A stretch of 64,000 nt of DNA from Limisphaerales bacterium (GTDB taxonomy: Bacteria > Verrucomicrobiota > Verrucomicrobiia > Limisphaerales > UBA11358): positions 3,091 through 67,090 of the forward strand of contig PMOA01000050.1 in NCBI GenBank assembly GCA_003161635.1. The letters run 5' to 3'. Position 1 is the stretch's first letter; the number at the start of each line of letters is the position of its first letter. A program made the position numbers and the translations under genes. The notes beneath the pieces were generated by a model. The model ran no database searches and was not told where the DNA came from. It saw nothing but the letters and a program-made list of their open reading frames with translations. This document shows positions 6,951-46,112 of this stretch, one piece after another.

Positions 6951-9026
6951 CTACGCCATTTTCGCCGCCAACTCGCGCGCCTGCAGGATCAAATCGAGAT
7001 CGTCAGCCAGATTGCCGAAACGGAATTTCGGCAAACCGCTTTGCTGCTGACCGAGCAACTCGCCCGGCCCGCGCAATTTCAAGTCCGTCTCCGCGATGCG
7101 AAAACCATCGTTCGTTTCCTCCAGCACTTTCAAGCGTTCATTCGCCCCGGCAGTTTCCGCGTCGGAAACCAAAATGCAATACGACTCATGTGCGCCGCGT
7201 CCGATGCGCCCGCGCAACTGGTGAAGTTGTGCCAGCCCGAACGCCTCGGCGTTTTCGACGAGCATGACCGTGGCGTTCGGCACATCCACGCCGACCTCGA
7301 TGAGCGAAGTCGCGAGCAATGCGTTCACCCCGCCGGCACGAAATTCCGTCATTACCTCGTCTTTTTCGCGGCTCTTTAATCGCCCGTGCAGCAACCCGAC
7401 GCGAAATGGCGCAAGCAAAGTTTTCAAATTTTCAAATTCTTCCGTCACCGCTTTCAAACCTTTCCCGCCCGATTCTTCGACGCGAGGATAAACCACATAA
7501 GCCTGTCGCCCGGCGGCGAGTTGTTCGCGGATAAACTCCCAAACCTTCGGCAATTTGTCAGCCGTGCGGATGAACGTTTTGATTTGGCCGCGGCCACCGG
7601 GCAATTCGTCAATCACCGACACCTCGAGGTCGCCGTAAAGCGTGAGGCCGAGCGTGCGCGGAATCGGCGTCGCCGTCATCACGAGCAAATGCGGATAACG
7701 ACCTTTGCGCACAAGCTGTTCGCGCTGTGCCACACCAAACTTGTGCTGCTCGTCAATGATGACCAGGCCCAGCTTCGGCAGATCAAAACCGGACTCAATG
7801 AGCGCGTGGGTGCCGATGAACAAGGTTGAAGGTTGCGTGTTGCGTGTTGCGTGATTCGCGCACGCCGTTCGTTGGACGTTGGACGTTCGATGTTCGATGT
7901 TCGATGTTTTCCTGTTCCCCGTTTGCAACTCGACTTTGACTTCCAGTGGTTCAAACCACCTCTGAAAATTGGTGTAGTGCTGTTCCGCCAGAATTTCCGT
8001 CGGGGCCATGAGCGCGACATTAAAGCCGCTTTCCAACGCCATCAGCGCCGTGCAAGCAGCCACGGCGGTTTTGCCCGAACCGACATCGCCTTGCAGCAAC
8101 CGCCGCATCGGATGCGCGCCGCCCATGTCCTTGCGGATTTCGCGCAGCACTTTCGTTTGCGCATCGGTAAGCTTGAAGCCGAGCCGGGCAAGAAACGGTT
8201 TGATGAGGCGATTGTTGCCGCCGCACGGCAGCGCCGCTGCGTGCGATTCAAATTTTTTCCGCCGCTTTTGGATTTGAACCTGCAATTCAATGAACTCGTC
8301 CAGCGCCAGCCGCCGGCGCGCAATTTCCACATCGGTCAGTTCTTCGGGGAAATGAATCATTCGAACCGCATTGGCGCGGCTTGGAAATGTAGCGGCGACT
8401 CGGGAGAGCGCCGCCATCTTTTCTTCCACTGCATTCCACTCAGGGAAATTGGCCGCGCTCTCACGAGACGCGGCTACAAACCTTTCCAGCGTGCGCCAGA
8501 TCAGCCCGCGCAGCCAGCGTTGCGGCAGGCCATCAGTGAGCGGATACACGGGCGCGATGCGGTTGATGTGGATGAAGCTTTCCTCGCCGCCTTCGATGAC
8601 TTCGGTTTCGGGATGAGTCATCACGCGCGGTTTGGTTTCGCTCAATTTGCCGTAAACAAAAACCTCGTCGCCCATGGCAAAATAATTTTGCATGAACGGC
8701 AGGTTCCACCAGCGGCAATGCAACCGCGCCGAGCCGTCGTCGAGAATGATTTCAAAAACAGACTTGTCGCCGCCGCGAAAACGCCTCAGGCCGGATGCGA
8801 CAATCGTGCCGCGCGCCGTGGCCGGTTCATCCTTCGTGAGTTCGGCGATTTTGCGGAAATGCCGGCGGTCTTCATAACGCCGCGGGCAGTGCAACAACAA
8901 ATCCTCGATGTTATGGATGTCGAGGCGCGCAAGTTGAGCCGCGCGTTCCGCGCCGACACCCCAGAGCGAACCCACCAGAGCGGCGAGCGGAGAAGTCTTG
9001 GATTCCGACGGCGACATTGGCCGCAC
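6951..9026 (-). CDS. recG: ATP-dependent DNA helicase RecG
   Basis: Wedge domain, GDVGSGKT (motif I), IIDEQHKFG (motif II), MTATPIPRT and QLHQLRGRIGRG (motif VI). The start is GTG 9026 or ATG 9017. The gene contains an in-frame repeat-encoded segment (see findings). Confidence 0.93.
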   Translation of the reverse strand: MRPMSPSESKTSPLAALVGSLWGVGAERAAQLARLDIHNIEDLLLHCPRRYEDRRHFRKIAELTKDEPATARGTIVASGLRRFRGGDKSVFEIILDDGSARLHCRWWNLPFMQNYFAMGDEVFVYGKLSETKPRVMTHPETEVIEGGEESFIHINRIAPVYPLTDGLPQRWLRGLIWRTLERFVAASRESAANFPEWNAVEEKMAALSRVAATFPSRANAVRMIHFPEELTDVEIARRRLALDEFIELQVQIQKRRKKFESHAAALPCGGNNRLIKPFLARLGFKLTDAQTKVLREIRKDMGGAHPMRRLLQGDVGSGKTAVAACTALMALESGFNVALMAPTEILAEQHYTNFQRWFEPLEVKVELQTGNRKTSNIEHRTSNVQRTACANHATRNTQPSTLFIGTHALIESGFDLPKLGLVIIDEQHKFGVAQREQLVRKGRYPHLLVMTATPIPRTLGLTLYGDLEVSVIDELPGGRGQIKTFIRTADKLPKVWEFIREQLAAGRQAYVVYPRVEESGGKGLKAVTEEFENLKTLLAPFRVGLLHGRLKSREKDEVMTEFRAGGVNALLATSLIEVGVDVPNATVMLVENAEAFGLAQLHQLRGRIGRGAHESYCILVSDAETAGANERLKVLEETNDGFRIAETDLKLRGPGELLGQQQSGLPKFRFGNLADDLDLILQARELAAKMA
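7825..7908. repeat. two heptanucleotide tandem arrays inside recG
   Basis: 7825-7852 holds GTTGAAG plus GTTGCGT x3. 7871-7905 holds GTTGGAC x2 plus GTTCGAT x3. An 18-nt spacer separates them. Confidence 0.9.
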
Positions 9027-29669: not shown

Positions 29670-29720
29670 TCGTAAATACAAATCAAGAAAATCTAACGAG
29701 CTATTTTCAAGAAACCGGGA

Positions 29721-35044: not shown

Positions 35045-38000
35045 TTACTGTGTTTGATAGCCTTGACTGGCAAGCGACTTGGTCAGGGAATTGACCAGGT
35101 CGGCCAGGGTCTGGCCGGTATTATTGGCGGTCTGGGTGCTTTGCGGCACGAAGGTGTAAATCGAAGAGGATTCGCTGAGGACCAGGTTGCCGGTTTGTGA
35201 ATCCGGATAGACATGGGTGGCATCGCTGGCAAAGGTGTTGGGAAATGAAAAATACTTTTTCTTGCCAATGGTGAGCACCGTGTTCTGCCCCTTGTGCAGA
35301 TCCGCCCAGATGTTCGGATAGCCATTGGTATCAATGCCCTGCCCCGCCTGTCCCAGAACGGTGAAGCTCTGGTTGCTAACCCCGGAAATGGTGATCCACA
35401 AATACTCCGGCAAGGGATTTACCCAGTATTGTTTTTTCCCCTTGATCGTGGCCCAGCCGACGAACACGCCATTAGTGTTGTCGGGAATGAAAAACATCTG
35501 CCCGGCGTAGGCATACGAAAGTGCCAGGCCGGACGTGATGATCTTTTGGATGCCGGCATATTTGTAAACCAGAATGTTCTGGGCAATCACCGTGACACTG
35601 GCGTTGGAGCTCGTGATGCTTCCATAGGGCGTGGTGATGGTCACGGCATAATTGCCCGACTGATTCGGATGAAGGTTCGTCAGGGTCAACGTGGCATTCG
35701 TGGCCCCAAAAATGTTTGTCCCGTTAAAACTCCATTGATAACTGAAAGGTCCGGTCCCGCCCGCAACCACGGACAAAACAATGCTTGAGCCTTCCACGGT
35801 GGTTTGATTCACCGGCTGCACGGCGATCCCGGGGGGCAAAGGCCCGGCGCATTTGCCCGCGCTGCCGGCGTTGTAGATAGCTGCAATTTCATTGGAAGAC
35901 AGAGCCCGGTTGAAAATCGCAGATTCATCTATTACGCCTTGGTAATAAAGATCGCCAAAATCCATTCTTCGCCCAAGCAGGAACGAGGTATCAGTTTTTG
36001 GTGTGAAGCTGCCCAAATTGCCCGACGATACAAGAGAACCGTTGTAATATATTTTGCCCACCCCACTAGCCTTGTCGTAGGTAAGGGCTACATGCTGAAG
36101 TATGCCGGCCTGAACGATTCCTGTAGGCGATGCAAAAATGTGAAGGCCACCCACCGAATCAACAATGTTCGCATAAATGCATCCCGGACCTCCAACCCCG
36201 CCGAAAACCCCCGAGATCCAAAAATGAGCTCCATTGTGGATACTGCCACCGTTTCCGCTCCACTCCATCAGTGGTTCCTGATTGGCCACAGATGTCGGGG
36301 CTATCCAACATTCCAACGTCATTCCTTGGCCGGCTCCGACATTAAGTGAAGAAGAAGCAGGCACACTTATTCCGTCATCCACACCATCAAAATTGAAGGC
36401 GTGCCCCACTTCGCCGGCGGTAAAGTTTATTCCCCCCTGCAAAAATCCGTTGTTGTTGCCCATGATGTCGTTGGCATTGCCTTCGCCCGGCCACCAGCTA
36501 ACCAGGCCCGATGGCGGGGACACGCAGGCGACGGCGCATTTGCCCGCGCTGCCGGCGTTGTAAATGGCCTGAACTTCAGCCGCTGTAAGGGCGCGGTTGT
36601 ACAGGGAAATCTCGTCTATATCTCCGGTAAACGGAAAATTGTTTTGACCGTCATTGAGATTCCCGATGCCGACGCCGGGAGAATCCTCGGGAATCAGATC
36701 GCCAAACGGTCTGACGGCCGTCACGGTCTGGCTGGCAAGTTGCCCGTTTATATATAACTTCATGATGCCAGATTCCCCATCCCAGGTGGCCGCCACATGA
36801 TACCACTGGTTATAGTTAATGTTGGTTCCAACAAAAGCGGAATTGCCCGACTCATCCTCAATATAAAAACGAAGGTTATTGTTTCCCTGCATGGACAGGA
36901 CGTAGGGATCCAGTCCTGGACGGTTGTCTCCCCGCCAGAAGATGCAGTATCCGTCTCCTCGCGGCCGGATCCAACCCTCGATGGACAAGGAGTTGGTCAG
37001 CACATAAGCCTGCTGGTCGGGAATCTGAATTCCGGTGTAAGTGCCGTAGGGAAAATTATTCGGGTCACAGGCAAACGCCTGGCCGACCACGCCGCTGGTA
37101 AAGGTCACGTTTTCAAGCAGACCGTTGTTCATGCCGACGATGTCATTGGCATTGCCTTCGCCCGGCCACCAGCCCACCAACCCTGAAGGCGCAGGCGTGC
37201 AGGAAGGCGGACACTTTCCTGCACTGCTGGCATTGTAGATGGATTGAATCTCAGCCGTGGTGAGGGCGCGGTTGTACAGGGAAATCTCGTCTATATCTCC
37301 CGTGAACGGAAAATTGTTTTGACCGTCATTGAGATTCCCGATGCCGACGCCGGGAGAATCCTCGGGAATCAGATCGCCAAACGGTCTGACGGCCGTCACG
37401 GTCTGGTCGGCAAGCACCCCGTTGGTATAAATGCTCATGGTCCCGGTGCTGCCATCCAGGGTCGCCGCCACATGCGTCCATTGGTTGTAGGTCAGGTAAG
37501 TTCCAACCGTGACTGTGTTGCCATCCTGATCACAAATCTGGAACTTGATATTGTTATTGCCCCACATGCCGATGAAGTAGGGATCCATGCCCGGACGGTT
37601 GTCTCCCCGCCAGAAGATGCAGTATCCGTCTCCCCGCGGCCGGACCCAGCCCTCGATGGACAAGGAGTTGGTCAGCACATAAGCCGGCTGGTCGGGAATC
37701 TGGATTCCGGTGTAAGTGCCATAAGGAAAATTATTCGGGTCACAGGCAAACGCCTGGCCGACCACGCCGTTGGTATAAGTGATATTTTGTGCGACCCCGT
37801 TGTTCCCCAATACGCTGTCGAGTGTGTTGCCATCGCCTTTCCACCAACCCACCAAGCCGGACGGCGGCGTGACGCAACTGGGGTCTTGAATCGGCGTGGG
37901 CGGCATGATCGGCGTGGGCAGCATGGGTCGCGTGGGCGGCATGATTGGCGTAGGCGGAACGCGCTGATACCGCCTAATATCCAAACCTTGAGCTGATACG

Positions 38001-38071
38001 CTGGCAACCAAGCTGAAAACCAAGAGGCCCGGCACGATGAACGACTTGAGAACTTTTGACGATCTTTTCAT
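35045..38071 (-). CDS. large secreted protein: Pro-rich leader, 3 x LamG/concanavalin-like lectin domains, Ig-like domain, C-terminal domain
   Basis: Signal peptide. Each of the three repeated units carries GLVGWW.G.GN..D, ...SIEGW.RPRG, ...FPF.G.IDE.S.YNRAL. An Ig-like segment (VEGSSIVLSVVAGGTGPFSYQWSFNG...SGNYAVTITT) follows. Confidence 0.9.
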   Translation of the reverse strand: MKRSSKVLKSFIVPGLLVFSLVASVSAQGLDIRRYQRVPPTPIMPPTRPMLPTPIMPPTPIQDPSCVTPPSGLVGWWKGDGNTLDSVLGNNGVAQNITYTNGVVGQAFACDPNNFPYGTYTGIQIPDQPAYVLTNSLSIEGWVRPRGDGYCIFWRGDNRPGMDPYFIGMWGNNNIKFQICDQDGNTVTVGTYLTYNQWTHVAATLDGSTGTMSIYTNGVLADQTVTAVRPFGDLIPEDSPGVGIGNLNDGQNNFPFTGDIDEISLYNRALTTAEIQSIYNASSAGKCPPSCTPAPSGLVGWWPGEGNANDIVGMNNGLLENVTFTSGVVGQAFACDPNNFPYGTYTGIQIPDQQAYVLTNSLSIEGWIRPRGDGYCIFWRGDNRPGLDPYVLSMQGNNNLRFYIEDESGNSAFVGTNINYNQWYHVAATWDGESGIMKLYINGQLASQTVTAVRPFGDLIPEDSPGVGIGNLNDGQNNFPFTGDIDEISLYNRALTAAEVQAIYNAGSAGKCAVACVSPPSGLVSWWPGEGNANDIMGNNNGFLQGGINFTAGEVGHAFNFDGVDDGISVPASSSLNVGAGQGMTLECWIAPTSVANQEPLMEWSGNGGSIHNGAHFWISGVFGGVGGPGCIYANIVDSVGGLHIFASPTGIVQAGILQHVALTYDKASGVGKIYYNGSLVSSGNLGSFTPKTDTSFLLGRRMDFGDLYYQGVIDESAIFNRALSSNEIAAIYNAGSAGKCAGPLPPGIAVQPVNQTTVEGSSIVLSVVAGGTGPFSYQWSFNGTNIFGATNATLTLTNLHPNQSGNYAVTITTPYGSITSSNASVTVIAQNILVYKYAGIQKIITSGLALSYAYAGQMFFIPDNTNGVFVGWATIKGKKQYWVNPLPEYLWITISGVSNQSFTVLGQAGQGIDTNGYPNIWADLHKGQNTVLTIGKKKYFSFPNTFASDATHVYPDSQTGNLVLSESSSIYTFVPQSTQTANNTGQTLADLVNSLTKSLASQGYQTQ

Positions 38072-38257: not shown

Positions 38258-39010
38258 TCAGTCCCAGACTCCCAGTTGGACGAGTTCCTTGGCCGCCGTT
38301 TTCGTCCAGTCGTGGCGGTTGGCTTTGGGGCTGGCCGGACTGGGATGCAGGATTTGCCCGACGCGAATCTTCGTGTTTTCACAAACCAATCGTCCGCGTT
38401 CCGCCGCGAAGCCGCCAATCCCAACCAACCATTCCGGCTGGAGAATTTCCAGGACGCGGCGCAAATGCTCGTCACAGATTTCAAACAGACGGTCGCGTTC
38501 GGCCCGGGGCAGTTTGTCGGGAGTTTGATTGCGACCGCTCGCTTCGCAGAATGCCAGCGGACAATAATTCGCCACGAAATGACCGGTAAAGAATCTTTCC
38601 GGCGAGTCAAAGCGTTCGGCGAAAAGTTTCCACAATCGCCGGCCGCTGACTTCGGAGCGCGGGCAATTAAAACCCAGGATGGGCCGTTTGGGATGTTCCG
38701 AACGGGGCCTTTCGATTCTGGCGCGAATGCCCAGCCAATCGCGCACGGCGGCAACTTCACCGAAGGGCACACCGGTTTGCACCATGCCGAACGGCCCGGG
38801 GTTCATTCCGAGAAACACCACCCGCTTCCGGCCGTTGCTGAACCGGCGCAAGTATTCCTCGTGCGCCTTCCACGCATAAGTCAGCGGATTATAGACGTGC
38901 GCGACGGGCGGCTGGAATTTCAAGCGACCGACTTGGGCCGAAAGCCTGCGAGCGGCGGCAATGAGACGTTTGCTGGTGGCAGAAAGTCGAGGTAACTCAG
39001 CTTTTCTCAT
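38258..39010 (-). CDS. SMUG1-family (family 3) uracil/5-hydroxymethyluracil DNA glycosylase
   Basis: FLGMNPGPFGMVQTGVPFGEVAAVRDWLGI and ILHPSPASPKANRHDW match the two SMUG1 signature motifs closely. Confidence 0.9.
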   Translation of the reverse strand: MRKAELPRLSATSKRLIAAARRLSAQVGRLKFQPPVAHVYNPLTYAWKAHEEYLRRFSNGRKRVVFLGMNPGPFGMVQTGVPFGEVAAVRDWLGIRARIERPRSEHPKRPILGFNCPRSEVSGRRLWKLFAERFDSPERFFTGHFVANYCPLAFCEASGRNQTPDKLPRAERDRLFEICDEHLRRVLEILQPEWLVGIGGFAAERGRLVCENTKIRVGQILHPSPASPKANRHDWTKTAAKELVQLGVWD

Positions 39011-39435
39011 GATGAGATTTCCGGCAAAATTTCGAGTGTCAGAGAATAATCTTTGTAACCAACCGCCCGCCAGAACGCGACCGCCGCTTCATTTTGAACC
39101 AAAACTTCAACCGTCAGCCGCTTATTTTTCGGCCAGATTTTTGAGCGCAGAATTTCCACGGCCTGACGGCCAATCCCCTGCCGGCGCCGGTTCCGGACGA
39201 CGGAAAGCTGCCGCAAATAAATCTCCTCCGGCTGCTCGCGATACAAAGCGTAAGCAACCACTTCACCGTCATTTTCAAAAAGCACCGCCGCGTATTCGGA
39301 CGCCAGCCAGCCTTTCATCCGCTGCTCCAGCTCAGGAACCGTCATGCGATTCCTGTGCCCTTCGTCACGAATCAACTGATGGTTGAGTTCCGCCAGCAGG
39401 GCACAATCGTTCAATGTTGCGCGCCGGAAGTTCAA
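39007..39435 (-). CDS. GNAT family N-acetyltransferase (copy 1)
   Basis: The RNRRRQGIGRQAVE acetyl-CoA (Q/R-x-x-G-x-G/A) motif. The TTG start overlaps the ORF6N stop (TTGA), and its own stop overlaps the SMUG1 start (ATGA). Confidence 0.85.
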   Translation of the reverse strand: MNFRRATLNDCALLAELNHQLIRDEGHRNRMTVPELEQRMKGWLASEYAAVLFENDGEVVAYALYREQPEEIYLRQLSVVRNRRRQGIGRQAVEILRSKIWPKNKRLTVEVLVQNEAAVAFWRAVGYKDYSLTLEILPEISS

Positions 39436-40064
39436 GTTTTCTTCCTTCCTTTGGCTCCCGCTTCATCCTCCGGCCGGACGTGAAAGCCAATCTGCCGTTT
39501 CGGCGGTTCGGGCGGCAGCGGCGGCGGGTCGAGAATTTCCATGACGCGCCGGAGCACGTCCACAATCACGCTCTCATGCACATCCAGACGGGCAGTTAAT
39601 TTCTTTTCCAAGTCGGCCAATTGGCGCGCGAGTTCCTTCGTGCCGCCGAGCAGGTCGCGCATCTTCACGAACGCGCGCACCACGAACACGCTCATGCGCA
39701 CGGCCTCCGGGCTGTTGAGAACATTGGCCGCCATGATCGCGCCGTTTTCGGTGAAGGCGTAAGGAAGAAAGCGGACATTGCGTTTATATGCGGTCGCAAT
39801 TTGCGACCGCATGGCTGACGCGGTTTTGGATGCGGTCGCAATTTGCGACCGCATCGGCATCAACGTTTCAGCCTCTTCAATTGTAAGCTGGAACAAGAAA
39901 TCAGCTGGGAATCGCTTTGCGTTACGCTTGATCTGCTCATTCAGCCGCCTTGTTGGCACGCCATAAATACGCGCCAAGTCAAAGTCGAGAATGACCTTCT
40001 GCCTGCGAATTGTGCGGATTACCGAACTGATGTCATCTATACGCGATAAACTTTGTTGGCTCAT
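39432..40064 (-). CDS. ORF6N (KilA-N-related) DNA-binding domain protein
   Basis: From ATG 40064: IRTIRRQKVILDFDLARIYGVPTRRLNEQIKRNAKRFPADFLFQLT ... RSQIATA (twice) ... LPYAFTENGAIMAANVLNSPEAV. Confidence 0.8.
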   Translation of the reverse strand: MSQQSLSRIDDISSVIRTIRRQKVILDFDLARIYGVPTRRLNEQIKRNAKRFPADFLFQLTIEEAETLMPMRSQIATASKTASAMRSQIATAYKRNVRFLPYAFTENGAIMAANVLNSPEAVRMSVFVVRAFVKMRDLLGGTKELARQLADLEKKLTARLDVHESVIVDVLRRVMEILDPPPLPPEPPKRQIGFHVRPEDEAGAKGRKKT

Positions 40065-40329
40065 GTTCGTTGCATCTTTGAACCGGTCACAATTTGTGAC
40101 CGCATACCTCTTTCCTCTTGATATCGCAATTTGCGATATCAAAGCGATTACTCGTTGCTCAAATGAACCGATCGCAAATTGCGATAGGTTCAAAGCTCAA
40201 CTCGAAGTACCAATTTGGCACTTCAAGTTTTCAAATTCTCTGCGCCTAAGCCTGTCGTTGGTGATTCGGTGATCCGGTCACAATTTGTGACCGGCTGGCT
40301 GCCCGAATCAAGGTCGCATTTTGCGACCT
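39790..40329. promoter_or_regulatory. array of 7 related palindromes (core TC[GA]CAA-A/T-TTG[CT]GA)
   Basis: Positions are 39790-39810, 39832-39852 (both inside the ORF6N CDS), 40084-40102, 40121-40139, 40171-40185, 40274-40294 and 40311-40329 (upstream of it). Confidence 0.8.
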
Positions 40330-40386
40330 TAAATAGCGGAGAAGATCTCGTCCCCGATGGGGCGAAAGGGATTAAAGGAAGCGGTT

Positions 40387-40448
40387 GGCGACAAAGATCC
40401 CGCTCCTCACCGGACGGGGCGGCGGGCTACGGCGGGGGATTTGAACAC
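40387..40448. repeat. R2 dispersed repeat, copy b
   Basis: GGCGACAAAGATCCCGC, then a G-rich tract, then GGGGGATTTGAACAC. Confidence 0.75.
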
Positions 40449-40607
40449 AGTCGTGCGCCTCGTCAAAGTTGTTCGGTACAAATGGCGGCGGTGAACCGCA
40501 CGCAGTCCAAACGCTTCGCGAGGTTCAGAGACGCCTGGCTGTCGCGTCAGTCCCGCTTTGCGGGAGAGTGCGGTTGCTTTAGCACCGCTTTCTTGCACGT
40601 CTGGCGA
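40448..40607. repeat. R3 dispersed repeat, copy i (~160 bp)
   Basis: CAGTCGTGCGCCTCGTCAAAGTTGT...CGCAGTCCAAACGCTTCGCGAG...TCCCGCTTTGCGGGA...CACGTCTGGCG. Collinear with 42583-42742. Confidence 0.8.
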
Positions 40608-40631
40608 GGCTGGGGTTTTAAGAAACCGGAT

Positions 40632-40706
40632 GGCGACAAAGATTCCGCTATACACGGTGCGGGGTGGCGGGTGGTGGCGGCGGGCGATGGCGGGGGATTT
40701 GAAAAC
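40632..40706. repeat. R2 dispersed repeat, copy c
   Basis: GGCGACAAAGATTCCGC, then a long G-rich tract, then GGGGGATTTGAAAAC. It lies 67 nt downstream of the stop of 40773..41903. Confidence 0.75.
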
Positions 40707-40772
40707 AGACATGCACGGTTGGCGCTGGTAGGGTCAGGCCGTGGGCTGTTTGGACCGTGTGCTCCGGTCTGG

Positions 40773-41903
40773 TTATTCGGAATTGAAACCCGAAACCCGG
40801 CTTCTCAACGGCATTCTGATGGTCCGCGCCGGGAGCGGTTCGACCCGGCCACCGGCGTTCGCCGCATATTCGGCGTAGATGGCATTGACTTCATCCGCCG
40901 ACAAGGCCCGGTCATACAAAGCCATCTCATCAATTTCACCAATGAACGGGAAATTGTTTCCCCCGTCATTGACGTTGCCGATACCGACGCCGGGAGATTC
41001 ATCGGCCAGCAAGGCACCAAACGGACGCACGGTTGTGACGGTCTGCGCTGCCAGCACGCCGTTGGTGTAAAGGCTCATCGTCCCCGTGCTGTCATCCAAA
41101 ACACCCGCCATATGAATCCACGCACCCAGCCCCACGGGCGTGCGCACCGCAGCCGTGTTGGCGTCCGCACCACAGATGGTAAATACAAGATTGAGGTGAC
41201 CATCCAAGGACAAACAATACGGGTCAAGGCCCGGACGATGGTCGCCGCGGAAAAAAATCACATAACCATTCCCGCGCGGACGGATCCAGCCTTCGATGCT
41301 CAAGGATTGGGTCAGGGCATAGACGGGCTTGTCGGGAATCTGCACGCCGACGTAAGTGCCGTAAGGGAAACTGTCCGGAGCAAAGGTAAACGCCTGCCCG
41401 ACCACCCCGTCCGTGAAGCTCACATTTTGCATGACCCCGTTGTTGCCGCCCACGGAATCCACCGCATTCCCTTCGCCTGACCACAAACCAATCAACCCGT
41501 CTCTAGGTCTGCCGGTCTTTCCGAGAACCGACACCCGCACGCTTTTAATCAAGGAAACCGGCAGCTTGACATCGCCATACGACGTCTCTATCCGGATCTC
41601 CTTCATGGCAAACTGAACCGCCAACGTGTCGCCACTGGACGTGGTCAGTTTTGCGGAATTGGTTTTAGCCTGACATTCGACCGAACGGACCCGGTCCAGC
41701 GGCAGTTTCATGTCGCCCAAAACATCGGAGCGGAATTTAAAAGCATCGTCACCACCTTTGCCGATGATGCGCGATCCGTCCCACAACTCAACGGTCAAAC
41801 GGAAGCCGGTCGGTTTATTGGTGGCCGCTGGTGCTGCTTGAAGCTTATGAAAACCCAACACCAAAACCGTCAGCAGACAGAAAAAACGCAGGATGGCATT
41901 CAT
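40773..41903 (-). CDS. secreted protein with one LamG/concanavalin-like lectin domain
   Basis: From ATG 41903 there is a signal peptide (MNAILRFFCLLTVLVLGFHKLQA). The C-terminal domain is a paralogue of the repeats in 35045..38071 (GLIGLWSGEGNAVD...SIEGWIRPRGNGY...FPFIGEIDEMALYDRAL). Confidence 0.85.
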   Translation of the reverse strand: MNAILRFFCLLTVLVLGFHKLQAAPAATNKPTGFRLTVELWDGSRIIGKGGDDAFKFRSDVLGDMKLPLDRVRSVECQAKTNSAKLTTSSGDTLAVQFAMKEIRIETSYGDVKLPVSLIKSVRVSVLGKTGRPRDGLIGLWSGEGNAVDSVGGNNGVMQNVSFTDGVVGQAFTFAPDSFPYGTYVGVQIPDKPVYALTQSLSIEGWIRPRGNGYVIFFRGDHRPGLDPYCLSLDGHLNLVFTICGADANTAAVRTPVGLGAWIHMAGVLDDSTGTMSLYTNGVLAAQTVTTVRPFGALLADESPGVGIGNVNDGGNNFPFIGEIDEMALYDRALSADEVNAIYAEYAANAGGRVEPLPARTIRMPLRSRVSGFNSE

Positions 41904-41959
41904 GATTAGGAGTCTGCATCCAATCGCACCTTCCGTCAAGGATAAGCATTTCAAACCCG

Positions 41960-42077
41960 CCGGGTCCAACGCAAGGATGGAGCCTCCCGAACACCCCCGC
42001 CCGCACGGCCGGAATCGGGTCGGTTTCCCTCGTGGCGATGTGCAGGTTGTAGAGGCTCACGGGCGATTTGTGTCCGG
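41960..42077 (-). pseudogene. decayed fragment of the argG 3' region (remnant a)
   Basis: In the argG-like frame it reads [20 protein letters not shown], against arg[24 protein letters not shown] similarity to 44945-45063 is visible by eye. The boundary is at CCGG 42074-42077. Confidence 0.6.
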
Positions 42078-42488
42078 TAAAATTTCCAATGTCAAACAAT
42101 AATCTTTGTAGCCGACGGCCCGCCAGAACGCGACCGCCGCTTCATTTTGAACCAGAACTTCAACTGTCAGCCGCTTGTTTTTCGGCCAGATTTTTGAGCG
42201 CAGAATTTCCACGGCCTGCCGGCCAATCCCCTGCCGGCGCCGGTTCCGGGCGACGAAAAGTTGGCGCAAATAAATTTCCTCCGGCTGCTCGCGATACAAG
42301 GCGTAAGCCACCACTGCACCGTCATTTTCAAACAGCATCGCGGCGTATTCGGACGCCAGCCAGCCTTTCATCCGCTGCTCCAATTCGGGAACCGTCATGC
42401 GATTTCTGTGTCCCTCGTCGCGGATCAACTGATGATTGAGTTCAGCCAGCAGAGCGCCATCGTCCAACGTTGCTCGTCGAAAGGTCAT
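42057..42488 (-). CDS. GNAT family N-acetyltransferase (copy 2, chimeric 3' end)
   Basis: 9 substitutions against copy 1 over the first 137 aa. The last 6 codons and the stop are read out of frame from the argG-derived fragment. Confidence 0.8.
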   Translation of the reverse strand: MTFRRATLDDGALLAELNHQLIRDEGHRNRMTVPELEQRMKGWLASEYAAMLFENDGAVVAYALYREQPEEIYLRQLFVARNRRRQGIGRQAVEILRSKIWPKNKRLTVEVLVQNEAAVAFWRAVGYKDYCLTLEILPDTNRP

Positions 42489-42582
42489 ACGAAACCCTGA
42501 CAGAAACTGTGCGTTTTGGCGAGGTCACGCTTTGCCGCACCGGGACGGGAATGATTAAAGGAAGCGGGTGGGGCTTTGCGCG

Positions 42583-42742
42583 CAGTCGCGCGTCTCGTCA
42601 AAGTTGTCCGGCGGGAACAGCGGCGGTAAACGCGCCGCAGTCCAAACGCTTCGCGAGCTTCGGAGACGCCTAGCTGTCGCGCCAGTCCCGCTTTGCGGGA
42701 GAGTGCGGATGCTTCAGCACCGCTTTCTGACACGTCTGGCGG
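42583..42742. repeat. R3 dispersed repeat, copy ii
   Basis: Collinear with 40448-40607 and shares CGCAGTCCAAACGCTTCGCGAG and TCCCGCTTTGCGGGAGAGTGCGG. Confidence 0.8.
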
Positions 42743-42768
42743 AGCGAAAGGGGTTAAAGGAAGCAGGT

Positions 42769-42833
42769 GGCGACAAAGATTCCGCTCCTCATGGGGCGGG
42801 GCGGCAGGCGGTGGCGTGGGATTTTACATTCAC
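42769..42833. repeat. R2 dispersed repeat, copy d
   Basis: GGCGACAAAGATTCCGC, then GGGGCGGGGCGGCAGGCGGTGGCGTGGG, then ATTTTACATTCAC. It abuts or overlaps the stop of 42830..43672. Confidence 0.75.
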
Positions 42834-43672
42834 ATGTCTTCTGGCCTCAATCTTCTTGGTATGAAGACCCCGGCTGGGGGTGGTGGCTGTCCAATAGTTG
42901 AAGATGATTTGAAGACTTTCTCAAAGTGACCGAGTGAAAGGGCAAAGAATTGGTCAATGCTTTTTGCAGAATTGGTGGCGAAATCCTGCAAGTAGGAATC
43001 TGACAGAATATTCACAATTGTATGCGGCTTGCCAGCAATTGGGTTTCGCCAAAGCAAAGTTCCGCGAGAGGTTTCAGTAACAGAAATCGACGCATCATCC
43101 TGAAGAACACACGAAAACAATTTACCTTCGACAACAACAACAGGAAAGAAGAAGGCGTATTCCAGCTCACCCGCCTCCTGTGCCTCAGCAGTTACGGCTG
43201 CGCCGACACTGGTCAAGGCCATATAAACGACATCGTTCCCAGTTGTGAACGCTTGCGTTGCTCCGTAGGCAGCCGGCTCAGTCACTCTAAATAAGTCAAG
43301 ATCTTGGATGTTCTTTCGTTGTGCAAACCCCTCCAGAAAAACAGCAGCCCTTCTGGTAGCGGTTCTTTGGGCGACTCGCGCTGGGGGCGCAAGTCGCAGA
43401 TCAGAGGAACAGAACATGAGCCAAGGTTTGCTACGCGACAACTTGCACTCGATCATAAACTGAACACGAACGAGCCTCCCCTCGATTTCACGATCAATGT
43501 GCGCAACGACATCTATCTCGCGTTGGGCATTTGTCGTTGGGTCGCGATAATAGTCGGATTGCCTGACCCGGAATCCAGCCCTGCGAAATGCACAGGCCAC
43601 CCGCATTTCAAGCGGATAGCCTTGTTCGTCTAACCAAGCGCGAACTTTGTTTTCTAGTTCAGACATGGCCAA
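42830..43672 (-). CDS. PD-(D/E)xK (Mrr-like restriction-endonuclease fold) N-terminal domain protein with unknown C-terminal domain
   Basis: LENKVRAWLDEQGYPLE...REIDVVAHIDREIEGRLVRVQFMIECKLS fits the D...(D/E)-x-K core of the Mrr_cat-type nuclease fold. Codon usage is AT-richer than the flanks. Confidence 0.7.
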   Translation of the reverse strand: MAMSELENKVRAWLDEQGYPLEMRVACAFRRAGFRVRQSDYYRDPTTNAQREIDVVAHIDREIEGRLVRVQFMIECKLSRSKPWLMFCSSDLRLAPPARVAQRTATRRAAVFLEGFAQRKNIQDLDLFRVTEPAAYGATQAFTTGNDVVYMALTSVGAAVTAEAQEAGELEYAFFFPVVVVEGKLFSCVLQDDASISVTETSRGTLLWRNPIAGKPHTIVNILSDSYLQDFATNSAKSIDQFFALSLGHFEKVFKSSSTIGQPPPPAGVFIPRRLRPEDM

Positions 43673-43693
43673 ACAGATTTTTGACAGTGCATC

Positions 43694-43826
43694 TTATTTC
43701 TTCTTCCCGTGCACCAGCGCCGCGATCCCGCTTGCGGGACGTAGCGCGTTGAGCCGGATGAAGCCGGTGGCGCGCCCTGGTTGTGGTCCGCACGGGCGGG
43801 ATCGGTTCGGTTTCCATCATGGCAAT
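43694..43826 (-). pseudogene. decayed duplicate of the argG 3' end including its stop (remnant b)
   Basis: TTATTTCTTCTTC...GCGTTGAGCCGGATGAAGCC...CCTGGTTGT...GGTTTCCATCATGGCAAT is collinear with 44886-45001 (TTATTTCTTCTTC...GCGTTTAACCGGATGAAGCC...CCTGGTTGT...GGCTTCCATCGTGGCAAT). Confidence 0.8.
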
Positions 43827-43870
43827 CAGCAAACTCCCGTTCTCCCTTTCTGGCAAGGCCAATCGCAAAT

Positions 43871-43925
43871 GGCGACAAAGATTCCGCTTCTAATTGGGGC
43901 AGAGTGGTGGGGTGAAGAGTTGGTT
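43871..43925. repeat. R2 dispersed repeat, copy e (more diverged)
   Basis: GGCGACAAAGATTCCGC followed by a G-rich tract, 5 nt downstream of the stop of 43930..44877. Confidence 0.6.
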
Positions 43926-43929
43926 TGAG

Positions 43930-44877
43930 CTAGAAATGACGCCAATAGCCGAGGGACTCTAGAATAAGCCGACGAGCAAGATGTTGAACATTTACAACAT
44001 CATATGGTGACAACCCTCTTGTTAAATGTTTAACACTATGAGAGGCAACGCAATCTCGAAGCCAGTCTGCATATGCGATGGCATCACTTATGTGTAACTC
44101 CGAGTCTCGAACGGTCCATGCAGACCATGTCGCTTTGCCTTTCGCCGGCACAGGCCTTTTCTTTTCTATTCTTCGTTTAGGACCACGCATAGTCCATAGG
44201 ATTGTTTCACTAAGATTAACACCTGCATTTTGAAGCCGGGATTCCAATTCTTGTTTTACAATAGGATTCCATTGACCATTAATCCGACTTGGTCGTTGTG
44301 ATGATGCTCGAATCTCCAGTCCGAGTTCCTCAATTGCTGAGTAGGCCGAGATAATTGCGTGGGAAAAAGTGATATGGTCTCTAGGAAACTGAGAAATGGG
44401 GAGATTGGGTGATCTGAACGGCTCAAGGTCAGCGCCATGAATAGCAAAGAGGGATGTGCTAAATCGGTATTTAGCAATAGCGTAGATCCATTTGCGCCGC
44501 CGTGTAGCTTTTTTAGCAATAGAACAAGCGCGGGGAAATCCTGTTATGCAATAGTTTCCCTCCGAAAGGGCTTGGCGTTCGTCTTGATTCATCCAACTAG
44601 GTTCAGTCTTGTTGTGAGCGACTAAATGCATCGGGAAGATTGGAGGATTTCCCAGTAGTACTTCGTGACACCCCTCGATCAAATCTAGAGTGCGTTGAGC
44701 CGAATACCAATTCTTTGCGTAAACGACTACTTCCCGTCCATCATGGACCGAAGAGGGTTTTTCCCTCTGATACTCAAACTTAACCTTCCAACCAGATCCT
44801 ATTAACGAATGCGAAACTCCATCACCCTCATCTCCAATTGTGATCAATCCCGTCCAAAAACGTTCTTGCTTTGCCAT
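43930..44877 (-). CDS. hypothetical protein (315 aa) with C-terminal Rx5H (HEPN-like) motif
   Basis: Uninterrupted ATG ORF that starts 8 nt after the argG stop. It has the lowest GC of the window by eye. The C-terminal helix is ISDAIAYADWLRDCVASHSVKH. No family recognised. Confidence 0.8.
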   Translation of the reverse strand: MAKQERFWTGLITIGDEGDGVSHSLIGSGWKVKFEYQREKPSSVHDGREVVVYAKNWYSAQRTLDLIEGCHEVLLGNPPIFPMHLVAHNKTEPSWMNQDERQALSEGNYCITGFPRACSIAKKATRRRKWIYAIAKYRFSTSLFAIHGADLEPFRSPNLPISQFPRDHITFSHAIISAYSAIEELGLEIRASSQRPSRINGQWNPIVKQELESRLQNAGVNLSETILWTMRGPKRRIEKKRPVPAKGKATWSAWTVRDSELHISDAIAYADWLRDCVASHSVKHLTRGLSPYDVVNVQHLARRLILESLGYWRHF

Positions 44878-44885
44878 CGTTTAAC

Positions 44886-46112
44886 TTATTTCTTCTTCTG
44901 CACCTTCGCCGCGACTTTCAGGCGCAGGGCGTTTAACCGGATGAAGCCAGTCGCGTCGTCCTGGTTGTAAGCCTTTGTAGGATCGGCTTCCATCGTGGCA
45001 ATGTGCGGATTGTAGAGGCTCACCGGACTCTTGCGGCCGGCGACCATGATGTTGCCTTTGTACAGTTTCACGCGCACGGTGCCGGTCACGTTCTTCTGGC
45101 TCTCGGTCACGAGCGCCTGCAACGCATACCGTTCCGGCGCGAACCAGTAACCGTAATAAACCAGCTCCGCGTAACGCGGAATCAGCGAGTCCCGCAGGTG
45201 CATGACCTCCCGGTCCATGGTGAGGCTTTCCATCTGCCGATGCGCAAAGTGCAGGATGGCGCCGCCGGGCGTTTCATACACGCCCCGCGATTTCATGCCC
45301 ACGTACCGGTTCTCCACCATGTCCACCCGCCCGACACCGTGTTTGCCGCCGATTTTATTCAGCGTCTTCATCACGCCGAGCGGGGAAAGGGTCTTTCCAT
45401 TCACTGCAACGGCGTTGCCTTTCTTGAAGTCAATCGTCACGAATTCCGGTTTGTTCGGCGCGTCTTCGGGAAACACCGATAGCGTGGTGAACGAGCCGCG
45501 AAACTTTTTGTCGCTCGCATCCATCCACGGGTCTTCGAGAATGCCCGCCTCGTAGGAAATGTGCAGCAGGTTCCGGTCGCTCGAGAACGGTTTCCTGGCG
45601 CTGGCCTGGACGGGAATCCTGTGCCGGGCGCAGTAATCAATCATCTCCTGCCGGCCGGGAAAGTCGGTGCGAAATGAAGCGTCCCGCCACGGGACGATGA
45701 CCTGCAAGTCCGGCGCGAGCGCGGCGGCGGTGAGTTCAAACCGCACCTGGTCGTTGCCTTTGCCGGTGGCGCCGTGCGCGATGGCGTCGGCCTTTTCCTT
45801 TTTGGCGATTTCCACCATGCGTTTGGCGATGAGCGGCCGGGCGATGCTGGTGCCGAGGAAATACTGGCCCTCATAGACCGCGCCGGCCTGGATGATGGGG
45901 TAGATGAAATCGCGGGCGAACTCCTCCTGCAAATCGTCAATGTAGATTTTGGACGCGCCGGTTTTCTTCGCCTTGGCTTCGAGGCCGCGGAGTTCCTCCT
46001 CCTGGCCGATGTTGGCGCAGAAGGCGATCATCTCGGCGTCGTAGGTTTCCTTGATCCACGAAAGCAGCACCGACGTGTCGAGGCCGCCCGAGTAAGCTAA
46101 AACAATTTTCAT
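44886..46112 (-). CDS. argG: argininosuccinate synthase
   Basis: [26 protein letters not shown], and the SxD.NLLHISYE region. 408 aa. Confidence 0.97.

Follow-up and report, generated by a model that had tools for sequence, protein, structure and literature searches.

Does a base-excision repair gene that is overlapped by an acetyltransferase gene and a phage-type DNA-binding gene belong to a dedicated anti-phage system, or have the three genes come to lie together in another way? This question is raised by a locus of a Limisphaerales bacterium (assembly GCA_003161635.1, contig PMOA01000050.1, positions 3,091 to 67,090, the whole 64,000-nucleotide (nt) stretch being called the window here), in which genes for an ORF6N/KilA-N-type protein, a GNAT acetyltransferase and a family-3 uracil-DNA glycosylase (UDG), SMUG1, follow one another on the minus strand (Table 1). 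A first reading made from the letters of the window (the sequence-only reading) had speculated that the trio restricts phages by means of its glycosylase, and had added that defence by SMUG1 was not described. On the latter point the literature searched agrees, as it gave no paper linking SMUG1 to phage defence and describes no SMUG1-family defence, the Brig1, Brig2 and Dag enzymes being other glycosylases; a SMUG1-based defence system would have been new. Judged from gene order in relatives, it is however likely that the window holds a core GNAT-SMUG1 pair abutted by an ORF6N gene which resides in an insertion hotspot, and that the three genes are not a dedicated functional system.

Three overlapping genes on one strand

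Both the list of open reading frames (ORFs) and the sequence itself give three co-directional minus-strand genes, and the two 4-nt stop/start overlaps reported by the sequence-only reading are present: the plus strand reads tcaa at 39432-39435 (TTGA on the gene strand) where ORF6N ends and GNAT begins, and tcat at 39007-39010 (ATGA on the gene strand) at the GNAT/SMUG1 boundary. Its three gene identities also hold, since all Pfam domain calls exceed their cut-offs: 94.1 bits against 27.8 for ORF6N (PF10543, profile positions 3-86 of 86), 45.3 against 20.7 for GNAT (Acetyltransf_1) and 41.5 against 24.3 for SMUG1 (UDG, PF03167). Between the three genes, scans for promoters and terminators found no candidate site exceeding the shuffled expectation, and together with the common strand and the stop/start overlaps this is the layout of a coupled operon; the three genes are probably co-transcribed.

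Several public gene calls start GNAT at an internal ATG (112 amino acids (aa)) and not at the TTG, but the TTG start is supported by the conservation of the first 30 residues, both in a second GNAT copy in the window (with ATG at the equivalent codon) and in the orthologues in loci L091, L096, L014 and L097, and by a Shine-Dalgarno-like run, AAGGAAGGAAG, just upstream of it. The GNAT translation carries RRQGIGR, which matches the acetyl-CoA motif Q/R-x-x-G-x-G/A, and its best NCBIfam match is RimI, below the cut-off of that model. The NCBI metagenome-assembled genome GCA_003152285.1 and many metagenome assemblies from peat and permafrost contain an identical locus, the nearest named relatives being Verrucomicrobiota (Limisphaerales/Pedosphaera-type). 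No Rfam match and no tRNA were found in the whole window.

Conservation of the three genes

A scan for SMUG1 with one genome per species gave at least 598 loci with a relative, and the best 80 (54-78% identity) were analysed with 6-kb flanks. By tblastn the window ORF6N was found within 6 kb of SMUG1 in L020 and L023 only (2/80), and a search with a profile hidden Markov model, trained on nine ORF6N sequences of six phyla, returned the same two loci. Equally, a GNAT orthologue lies near SMUG1 in two of the 80 genomes (tblastn), downstream in L014 and upstream in L020. When the neighbouring ORFs of the 80 loci were clustered, no family occurred in more than 10 loci, the largest clusters comprising 8-10 loci, and the recurrent neighbours of SMUG1 (response regulator, alpha/beta hydrolase, MetW, MFS transporter, PTS enzyme I, GatB, HPPK and UbiA) are housekeeping families which differ between species. 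The sequence-only reading had named conservation of the gene neighbourhood as one way to check its phage restriction proposal, and a lack of co-conservation elsewhere as speaking against it; outside one narrow clade the three genes are indeed not co-conserved.

The close relatives differ in which of the three genes they have and in their order. In L096 (SMUG1 89% identical) the order ORF6N-GNAT-SMUG1 and both 4-nt overlaps are kept, while in L091 (92%) six inserted genes, AbiTii among them, stand between argG-ORF6N and GNAT-SMUG1. L093 (93%) has an ORF6N gene which directly overlaps SMUG1 by 4 nt, the alignment showing a clean deletion of GNAT in which its first codons (VNVAPN vs MNFRRA) are fused to SMUG1 codon 13 (L093 positions 6965-7060); the same precise deletion is found in L116, L119 and L144, again with SMUG1 retained. 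SMUG1 is followed by an orthologous GNAT (81-82% identical) in L097 (SMUG1 82%) and L014 (74%), and neither ORF6N nor an intact GNAT lies beside it in L095, L098 and L099. What does travel with SMUG1 is the downstream synteny, consisting of a 95-103-aa ORF, GCE_fung, GH28, zf-CDGSH and Robl_LC7. It follows from these varied arrangements that SMUG1 is a fixed core gene, GNAT an old but dispensable neighbour, and ORF6N a gene that comes and goes; the trio is limited to a narrow Verrucomicrobial clade and is not a conserved three-gene system.

The same comparisons bear on the possibility that GNAT and SMUG1 form a functional two-gene module, in which the GNAT would, for example, acetylate SMUG1 or a repair partner, with ORF6N as an unrelated upstream insertion. 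The ATGA overlap between the two genes is retained in the window, L091, L096, L100, L103 and L113, and in L014, L097 and L020 SMUG1 has an orthologous GNAT (80-84% identical) as its neighbour, on one side or the other. On the other hand, 78 of the 80 species genomes have no GNAT orthologue near SMUG1, the four clean deletions of GNAT came without loss of SMUG1, and the second GNAT copy of the window lies away from SMUG1; in L020 and L095 the GNAT appears frameshifted, although these are long-read assemblies and the frameshifts are possibly sequencing errors. With a generic small GNAT that has only sub-threshold RimI-like matches, we regard such a module as quite unlikely.

SMUG1 and the defence reading

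The window SMUG1 resembles the Geobacter metallireducens SMUG1 (5h93_A) with E=1.2e-82 over residues 16-248, and vertebrate SMUG1 over nearly its whole length (1oe4_A, E=3.5e-74; another match at 1.3e-70). Its translation contains the two motifs quoted in the sequence-only reading, GMNPGPFGMVQTGVPFGE and HPSPASPKAN, and in an alignment of the window protein with its relatives, G. metallireducens SMUG1 included, both GMNPGP (G68-M-N70-P-G-P73, with the catalytic Asn) and HPSPASP (H222-P-S-P-A-S-P228, with the catalytic His) are invariant. More than 8000 database homologues were scored, the GC content of the gene (0.59) is like that of the surrounding genome, and SMUG1 has no match in PADLOC or PHROG and no relative in a collection of 2.9 million viral contigs, and a phage or plasmid origin was rejected for lack of a PHROG match and of viral relatives. 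The wide distribution, the normal GC content, the missing PADLOC, PHROG and viral matches and the housekeeping neighbours all fit a housekeeping repair enzyme, as does the statement of a review (PMC12699328) that bacteria carry either UNG or SMUG1. The window protein is thus best read as an ordinary base-excision uracil-DNA glycosylase with a predicted role in repair. The sequence-only reading had considered its context unusual for a housekeeping UDG; the recurrent neighbours of SMUG1 are housekeeping genes, and SMUG1 itself bears no mark of mobility or defence.

In a dedicated anti-phage system, ORF6N would sense or target invading DNA, GNAT would modulate the response and SMUG1 would excise uracil or 5-hydroxymethyluracil (hmU) from phage genomes. 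The overlap of three genes on one strand is what such a system would lead one to expect, UDG-superfamily defence enzymes (Brig1, Brig2) are known, ORF6N belongs by its matches to a candidate defence family of which one member was protective in a preprint (see below), and the trio adjoins an accessory tract which in the sister strain L091 carries AbiTii. Against this, co-occurrence is confined to the one clade, with any ORF6N near SMUG1 in 2/80 species genomes; L093, L116, L119 and L144 have lost GNAT, which in L097 and L014 is found downstream of SMUG1 instead; six genes part ORF6N from GNAT-SMUG1 in L091; the ORF6N orthologues are mostly followed by an argG remnant and not by SMUG1; and SMUG1 combines core synteny and normal GC content with the absence of PADLOC, PHROG and viral-contig matches. 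Restriction of phages by the trio is therefore very improbable, and the gene-neighbourhood conservation speaks against a SMUG1-based defence system here.

For ORF6N, the mobile and defence-island flavour seen by the sequence-only reading is judged correct. The protein, an ORF6N domain with a coiled-coil tail encoded at a GC content of about 0.51, matches three PADLOC models of PDC-S05, a candidate single-gene defence (PDLC04869 at 1e-43, PDLC04856 at 1.8e-40 and PDLC04849 at 9.6e-31), and a PHROG anti-repressor family (5e-19), and distant plasmid ORF6N genes adjoin integrases, sit between hsdM and hsdS of a type I restriction-modification operon, or lie beside a Tn3 transposase. One PDC-S05 member, a RhuM-domain protein, cut the plating of T7 and T5 about 1000-fold (preprint 10.1101/2024.09.26.614923). 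By analogy, if the trio holds any defence gene, the candidate would be ORF6N alone.

The 3' end of argG as a probable insertion hotspot

A scan of metagenomes with ORF6N gave 80 loci (63-99% identity), of which 57 extend far enough upstream and 71 far enough downstream to be scored. In 40 of the 57, fewer than 450 nt separate ORF6N from the 3' end of argG upstream of it, and directly after ORF6N there is a duplicate of the argG 3' end in 31/71 loci, GNAT in 10/71, SMUG1 (with GNAT deleted) in 3/71 and another sequence in 27/71. The conserved partner of ORF6N is the argG 3' end, not SMUG1, and L101, L168 and L178 have a compact argG-ORF6N-GNAT backbone. The duplicate consists of the last 113-117 nt of argG through the stop codon, is 83-95% identical to it and has differences that look mostly synonymous, as one would expect of an attachment site carried by an element.

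The window itself has the same features, as the argG 3' end is the apparent insertion site of a variable tract in which two argG scars (43693-43784 and 42017-42063) separate a 315-aa gene, a 280-aa gene with GNAT copy 2, and a LamG gene (Table 1). The direct repeats of the argG 3' end thus flank variable cargo, and this cargo also varies among the sister strains L091, L093 and L096, with AbiTii and others in L091 and DUF2971 in L093. ORF6N and the 280-aa and 315-aa genes have a lower GC content (0.455-0.51), and the accessory, repeat-rich tract noted in the sequence-only reading is real and accessory in nature. No integrase-family Pfam match was recorded among the called genes within 8 kb of SMUG1 in L001-L010, where several genes are without any recorded match. 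The argG 3' duplicates suggest a site-specific insertion hotspot for integrase-less cassettes of about 1 kb.

The tract also sheds light on the ORF6N/GNAT overlap. GNAT copy 2 has a different C-terminal end, adjoins neither ORF6N nor SMUG1, and is joined at its 3' end to an internal argG fragment. The start region of copy 1 reads TTGAAC, as opposed to ATGACC in copy 2 and L091, which makes it a chimeric junction, and the ORF6N/GNAT overlap is accordingly a recombination joint and not evidence of evolved coupling. A toxin-antitoxin reading of ORF6N-GNAT was rejected, since GNAT orthologues also exist apart from ORF6N and none of the matches was to a toxin-type family.

Table 1. Genes, argG-derived scars, palindromes and repeats at the ORF6N-GNAT-SMUG1 locus (window coordinates)
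Feature	Position	Strand	Description
SMUG1, family-3 uracil-DNA glycosylase	38258..39010	-	250 aa, ATG start; distal edge of variable tract
GNAT acetyltransferase copy 1	39007..39435	-	142 aa, TTG start; stop overlaps SMUG1 start (ATGA)
ORF6N/KilA-N-type protein	39432..40064	-	210 aa, ATG start; stop overlaps GNAT start (TTGA)
Palindrome unit 2 in ORF6N coding sequence	39788..39812	.	perfect, 25 nt, ATGCGGTCGCAAWTTGCGACCGCAT; encodes MRSQIATA
Palindrome unit 1 in ORF6N coding sequence	39830..39854	.	perfect, sequence identical to unit 2
Array of about six related palindromes	40084..40330	.	core TNNCAAWTTGNNA; within the 270 nt upstream of ORF6N
Dispersed intergenic repeat family	40359..40714; also 42541-42824, near 43865-43898, near 29720	.	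further copies in L091, L093
LamG-domain protein, tract cargo	40773..41969	-	398 aa; Pfam Laminin_G_3
Fragment from inside argG 3' region	42017..42063	-	85% identical to 44980-45026; abuts GNAT copy 2 end
GNAT copy 2	42057..42488	-	143 aa, ATG start; 92% identical to copy 1
280-aa cargo gene	42830..43672	-	no match in Pfam, NCBIfam, PADLOC, PHROGs, PDB
Duplicate of last 84 nt of argG incl. stop codon	43693..43784	-	77% identical; att-like scar between two cargo genes
315-aa cargo gene	43930..44877	-	no match in Pfam, NCBIfam, PADLOC, PHROGs, PDB; markedly low GC, 0.455-0.48
argG (argininosuccinate synthase)	44886..46112	-	NCBIfam argG 5e-175, Pfam; 3' end is proximal border of variable tract

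Some further observations concern the tract and its surroundings. The 280-aa protein has a D...ExK-like pattern (EIDVVA...ECK), seen by eye only. The dispersed repeat family has a core, TGGCGACAAAGATTCCGCT, at window positions 29720, 40386, 40631, 42768 and 43870, in units of about 90-250 nt; all copies have one orientation and lie just beyond the stop codons of minus-strand genes, and Rfam gave no match to them. Between SMUG1 and the syntenic downstream genes, positions 35045-38071 encode a 1008-aa protein with three LamG domains, an Ig domain and internal 675-nt repeats, which is not at the equivalent position in L091, L093 or L096.

Palindromes within and upstream of ORF6N

Every ORF6N gene of the clade contains within its coding sequence a perfect palindrome of 25-39 nt with the centre CAAWTTG, located at the conserved peptide 'LRSQ[IF]xTS', and it is found at homologous codons in L020, L091, L096, L100-L179, L180 and L182. 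The window gene has two units, which form a 42-nt in-frame tandem duplication (39783-39854) and as single-stranded DNA fold with -31.9 kcal/mol (z = -7.0); about 10 other ORF6N lineages have two units too, sometimes differing in arm type. Between orthologues the arms differ as well, with TTGAAGTTCCAATTTGGAACTTCAA in L096, TTGAGGTGCCAAATTGGCACCTCAA in L020 and further variants elsewhere, and pairs were therefore counted on 46 distinct 35-mers and compared with 500 shuffles. Standard pairs make up 91.9% of cells (70.6% in shuffles), changes on both sides are seen in 11 of the 15 pairs, and 144 cells are changed on both sides against 44.6 +/- 5.3 in shuffled data, a value reached by none of the 500 shuffles, while G-U is almost absent. 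Compensatory changes in the arms with almost no G-U point to a constraint at the level of DNA and not of RNA. A hairpin in RNA or a known RNA was rejected as the identity of the palindromes on the same grounds, there being essentially no G-U and no Rfam match in the window.

Related palindromes are also found upstream of ORF6N, where the members of the window array include GGTCACAAATTGTGACC and TTGATATCGCAATTTGCGATATCAA at a spacing of roughly 36-50 nt. The motif TCRCAAWTTGYGA occurs eight times in the window with at most one mismatch (0.79 expected), seven of these clustering at 39794-40326, and in the window together with about 1 Mb of sequence from the other loci all of its 20 exact hits are at ORF6N genes. 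In L091, L093, L096 and most of L100-L179 ORF6N is preceded by a similar array, and arm types found upstream in one locus recur within the coding sequence of another. Rapid cassette switching between upstream and internal palindromes was nevertheless rejected, as the type tracks the phylogeny of the ORF6N flanks: ORF6N pairs with at least 88% flank identity have matching palindrome types. Among distant ORF6N genes of plasmids, a palindrome is found at the homologous position in Bacteroides ovatus (arm 13), Treponema (arm 15, one mismatch) and Legionella (arm 8), while a Butyrivibrio plasmid gene has it upstream instead (arm 16). The AlphaFold model of the ORF6N protein has a moderate mean confidence (predicted local distance difference test score, pLDDT, of 60), and the palindrome-encoded residues 70-97 are its lowest-confidence part (below 50).

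A tentative reading of these data, which we put forward as possible though doubtful, is that ORF6N is a self-contained hotspot cassette and that its covarying Watson-Crick palindromes (arms of 12-19 nt) act as DNA hairpin or cruciform sites; the conserved 'LRSQ[IF]xTS' peptide would in that case mostly reflect a structural constraint on the DNA. As part of such a cassette the palindromes could serve as recombination or insertion sites at the argG 3' end, or could mediate sensing or autoregulation in a defence gene of the PDC-S05 type.

ORF6N might alternatively be an autoregulated transcription factor acting on the palindrome array, which has captured GNAT-SMUG1 so that expression of the repair gene would now depend on the ORF6N promoter. 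The six palindromes that share a core, found within 270 nt upstream of ORF6N, and the two palindromes inside the gene agree with this, as do the absence of terminator- or promoter-like sites above shuffled expectation between the three genes and the ORF6N/GNAT junction, which replaced the start and upstream region of GNAT itself. The arms vary yet stay strictly complementary, however, which a sequence-specific operator does not need, and predicted from sequence features in this way, autoregulation with capture seems unlikely; it is compatible with the preferred explanation of a core GNAT-SMUG1 pair abutted by a hotspot gene, and is largely a refinement of it.

A proposed history of the locus

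Under the explanation that we prefer, SMUG1 and its old chromosomal neighbour GNAT would sit at the distal edge of a hotspot that begins at the argG 3' end, with argG-ORF6N-GNAT-SMUG1 as the compact backbone of the clade. ORF6N would be a fast-diverging, replaceable hotspot gene of the PDC-S05 (anti-repressor/KilA-N) type which brings its own palindrome array, and small integrase-less cassettes would insert beside it and would each duplicate the terminal ~115 nt of argG; the 315-aa gene, the 280-aa gene, GNAT copy 2 and the LamG gene of the window would have come in with such cassettes. The ORF6N/GNAT overlap would have arisen as a recombination junction that swapped the ATG of GNAT for TTG, whereas the GNAT/SMUG1 ATGA overlap would reflect ordinary operon compaction, and co-transcription of the trio would be an accident of insertion.

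Several points weigh against this history. The trio or its GNAT-deleted derivative is found in 13 of the 71 ORF6N loci, with ORF6N identities of 66-99% and direct or near-direct junctions, a recurrence which indicates that the probable co-transcription has been maintained for some time. GNAT and SMUG1 are adjacent in both orders in several lineages, which could hint at a functional link between them. Animal SMUG1 excises hmU, and lastly ORF6N may well, by analogy with its PDC-S05 relatives, be a defence gene itself.

The locus calls for caution, in that a tight operon of a repair enzyme and a phage-type DNA binder, with 4-nt overlaps, can arise from the insertion of a cassette beside a core gene. 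Two by-products of the analysis could be of more interest, namely the palindromes of ORF6N and the cassette hotspot at the 3' end of argG. The latter is a small, integrase-less hotspot in soil and peat Verrucomicrobiota with defence-type cargo (AbiTii, DUF2971, PDC-S05), while the former is a compensatorily evolving DNA palindrome within the ORF6N coding sequence in at least three phyla, and suggests that a very common, uncharacterised family of defence islands and mobile elements contains a cis-element not yet described.

Comparison with known systems

The glycosylases known from phage defence are Brig1 and Brig2 (UDG superfamily) and Dag1 and Dag2 (HhH superfamily), which have been described as sporadic, mobile and borne on integrons or islands, and which are often AT-rich and only distantly similar in sequence to repair UDGs. 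SMUG1 falls into the same wide class of enzymes, has the UDG fold and could in principle excise non-canonical pyrimidines from phage DNA, an analogy which does not extend to its genomic setting: the window SMUG1 is a core, syntenic gene of normal GC content without PADLOC or viral match, and has neither the sporadic distribution nor the association with mobile elements, integrons or islands of the defence enzymes. Compared with bacterial and vertebrate SMUG1 (UDG family 3; PDB 5H93; Xenopus and human), the window protein is alike in its motifs and in its length of about 240-250 aa and is itself unremarkable; only the local gene order, with ORF6N and GNAT upstream, is unusual.

Pairs of a GNAT toxin and a ribbon-helix-helix (RHH) antitoxin, such as TacAT, AtaRT and KacAT, share with the window a small GNAT gene which overlaps, and lies directly downstream of, a gene for a DNA-binding protein. 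In the window the upstream gene is however ORF6N and not RHH/DUF1778, the GNAT orthologue is also found without ORF6N (copy 2, L097 and L014), and its best NCBIfam match is the sub-threshold one to RimI. With the PDC-S05 and ORF6N/KilA-N anti-repressors (RhuM relatives) the window ORF6N shares its PDC-S05 and PHROG anti-repressor matches, but the protective PDC-S05 member carried a RhuM domain whereas the window protein is an ORF6N domain with a coiled-coil tail, and it is a candidate only.

Integration hotspots that use the 3' end of a conserved gene, and in which partial copies of this target flank cargo arranged in tandem, are familiar from tRNA-targeting islands and tycheposon-type arrays. 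The argG hotspot differs from these in that its target is protein-coding, its units are only about 1 kb and no integrase was recorded within 8 kb, but it is like them in that ORF6N and other cargo lie between direct repeats of the argG 3' terminus (~115 nt), and in that this cargo differs between sister strains.

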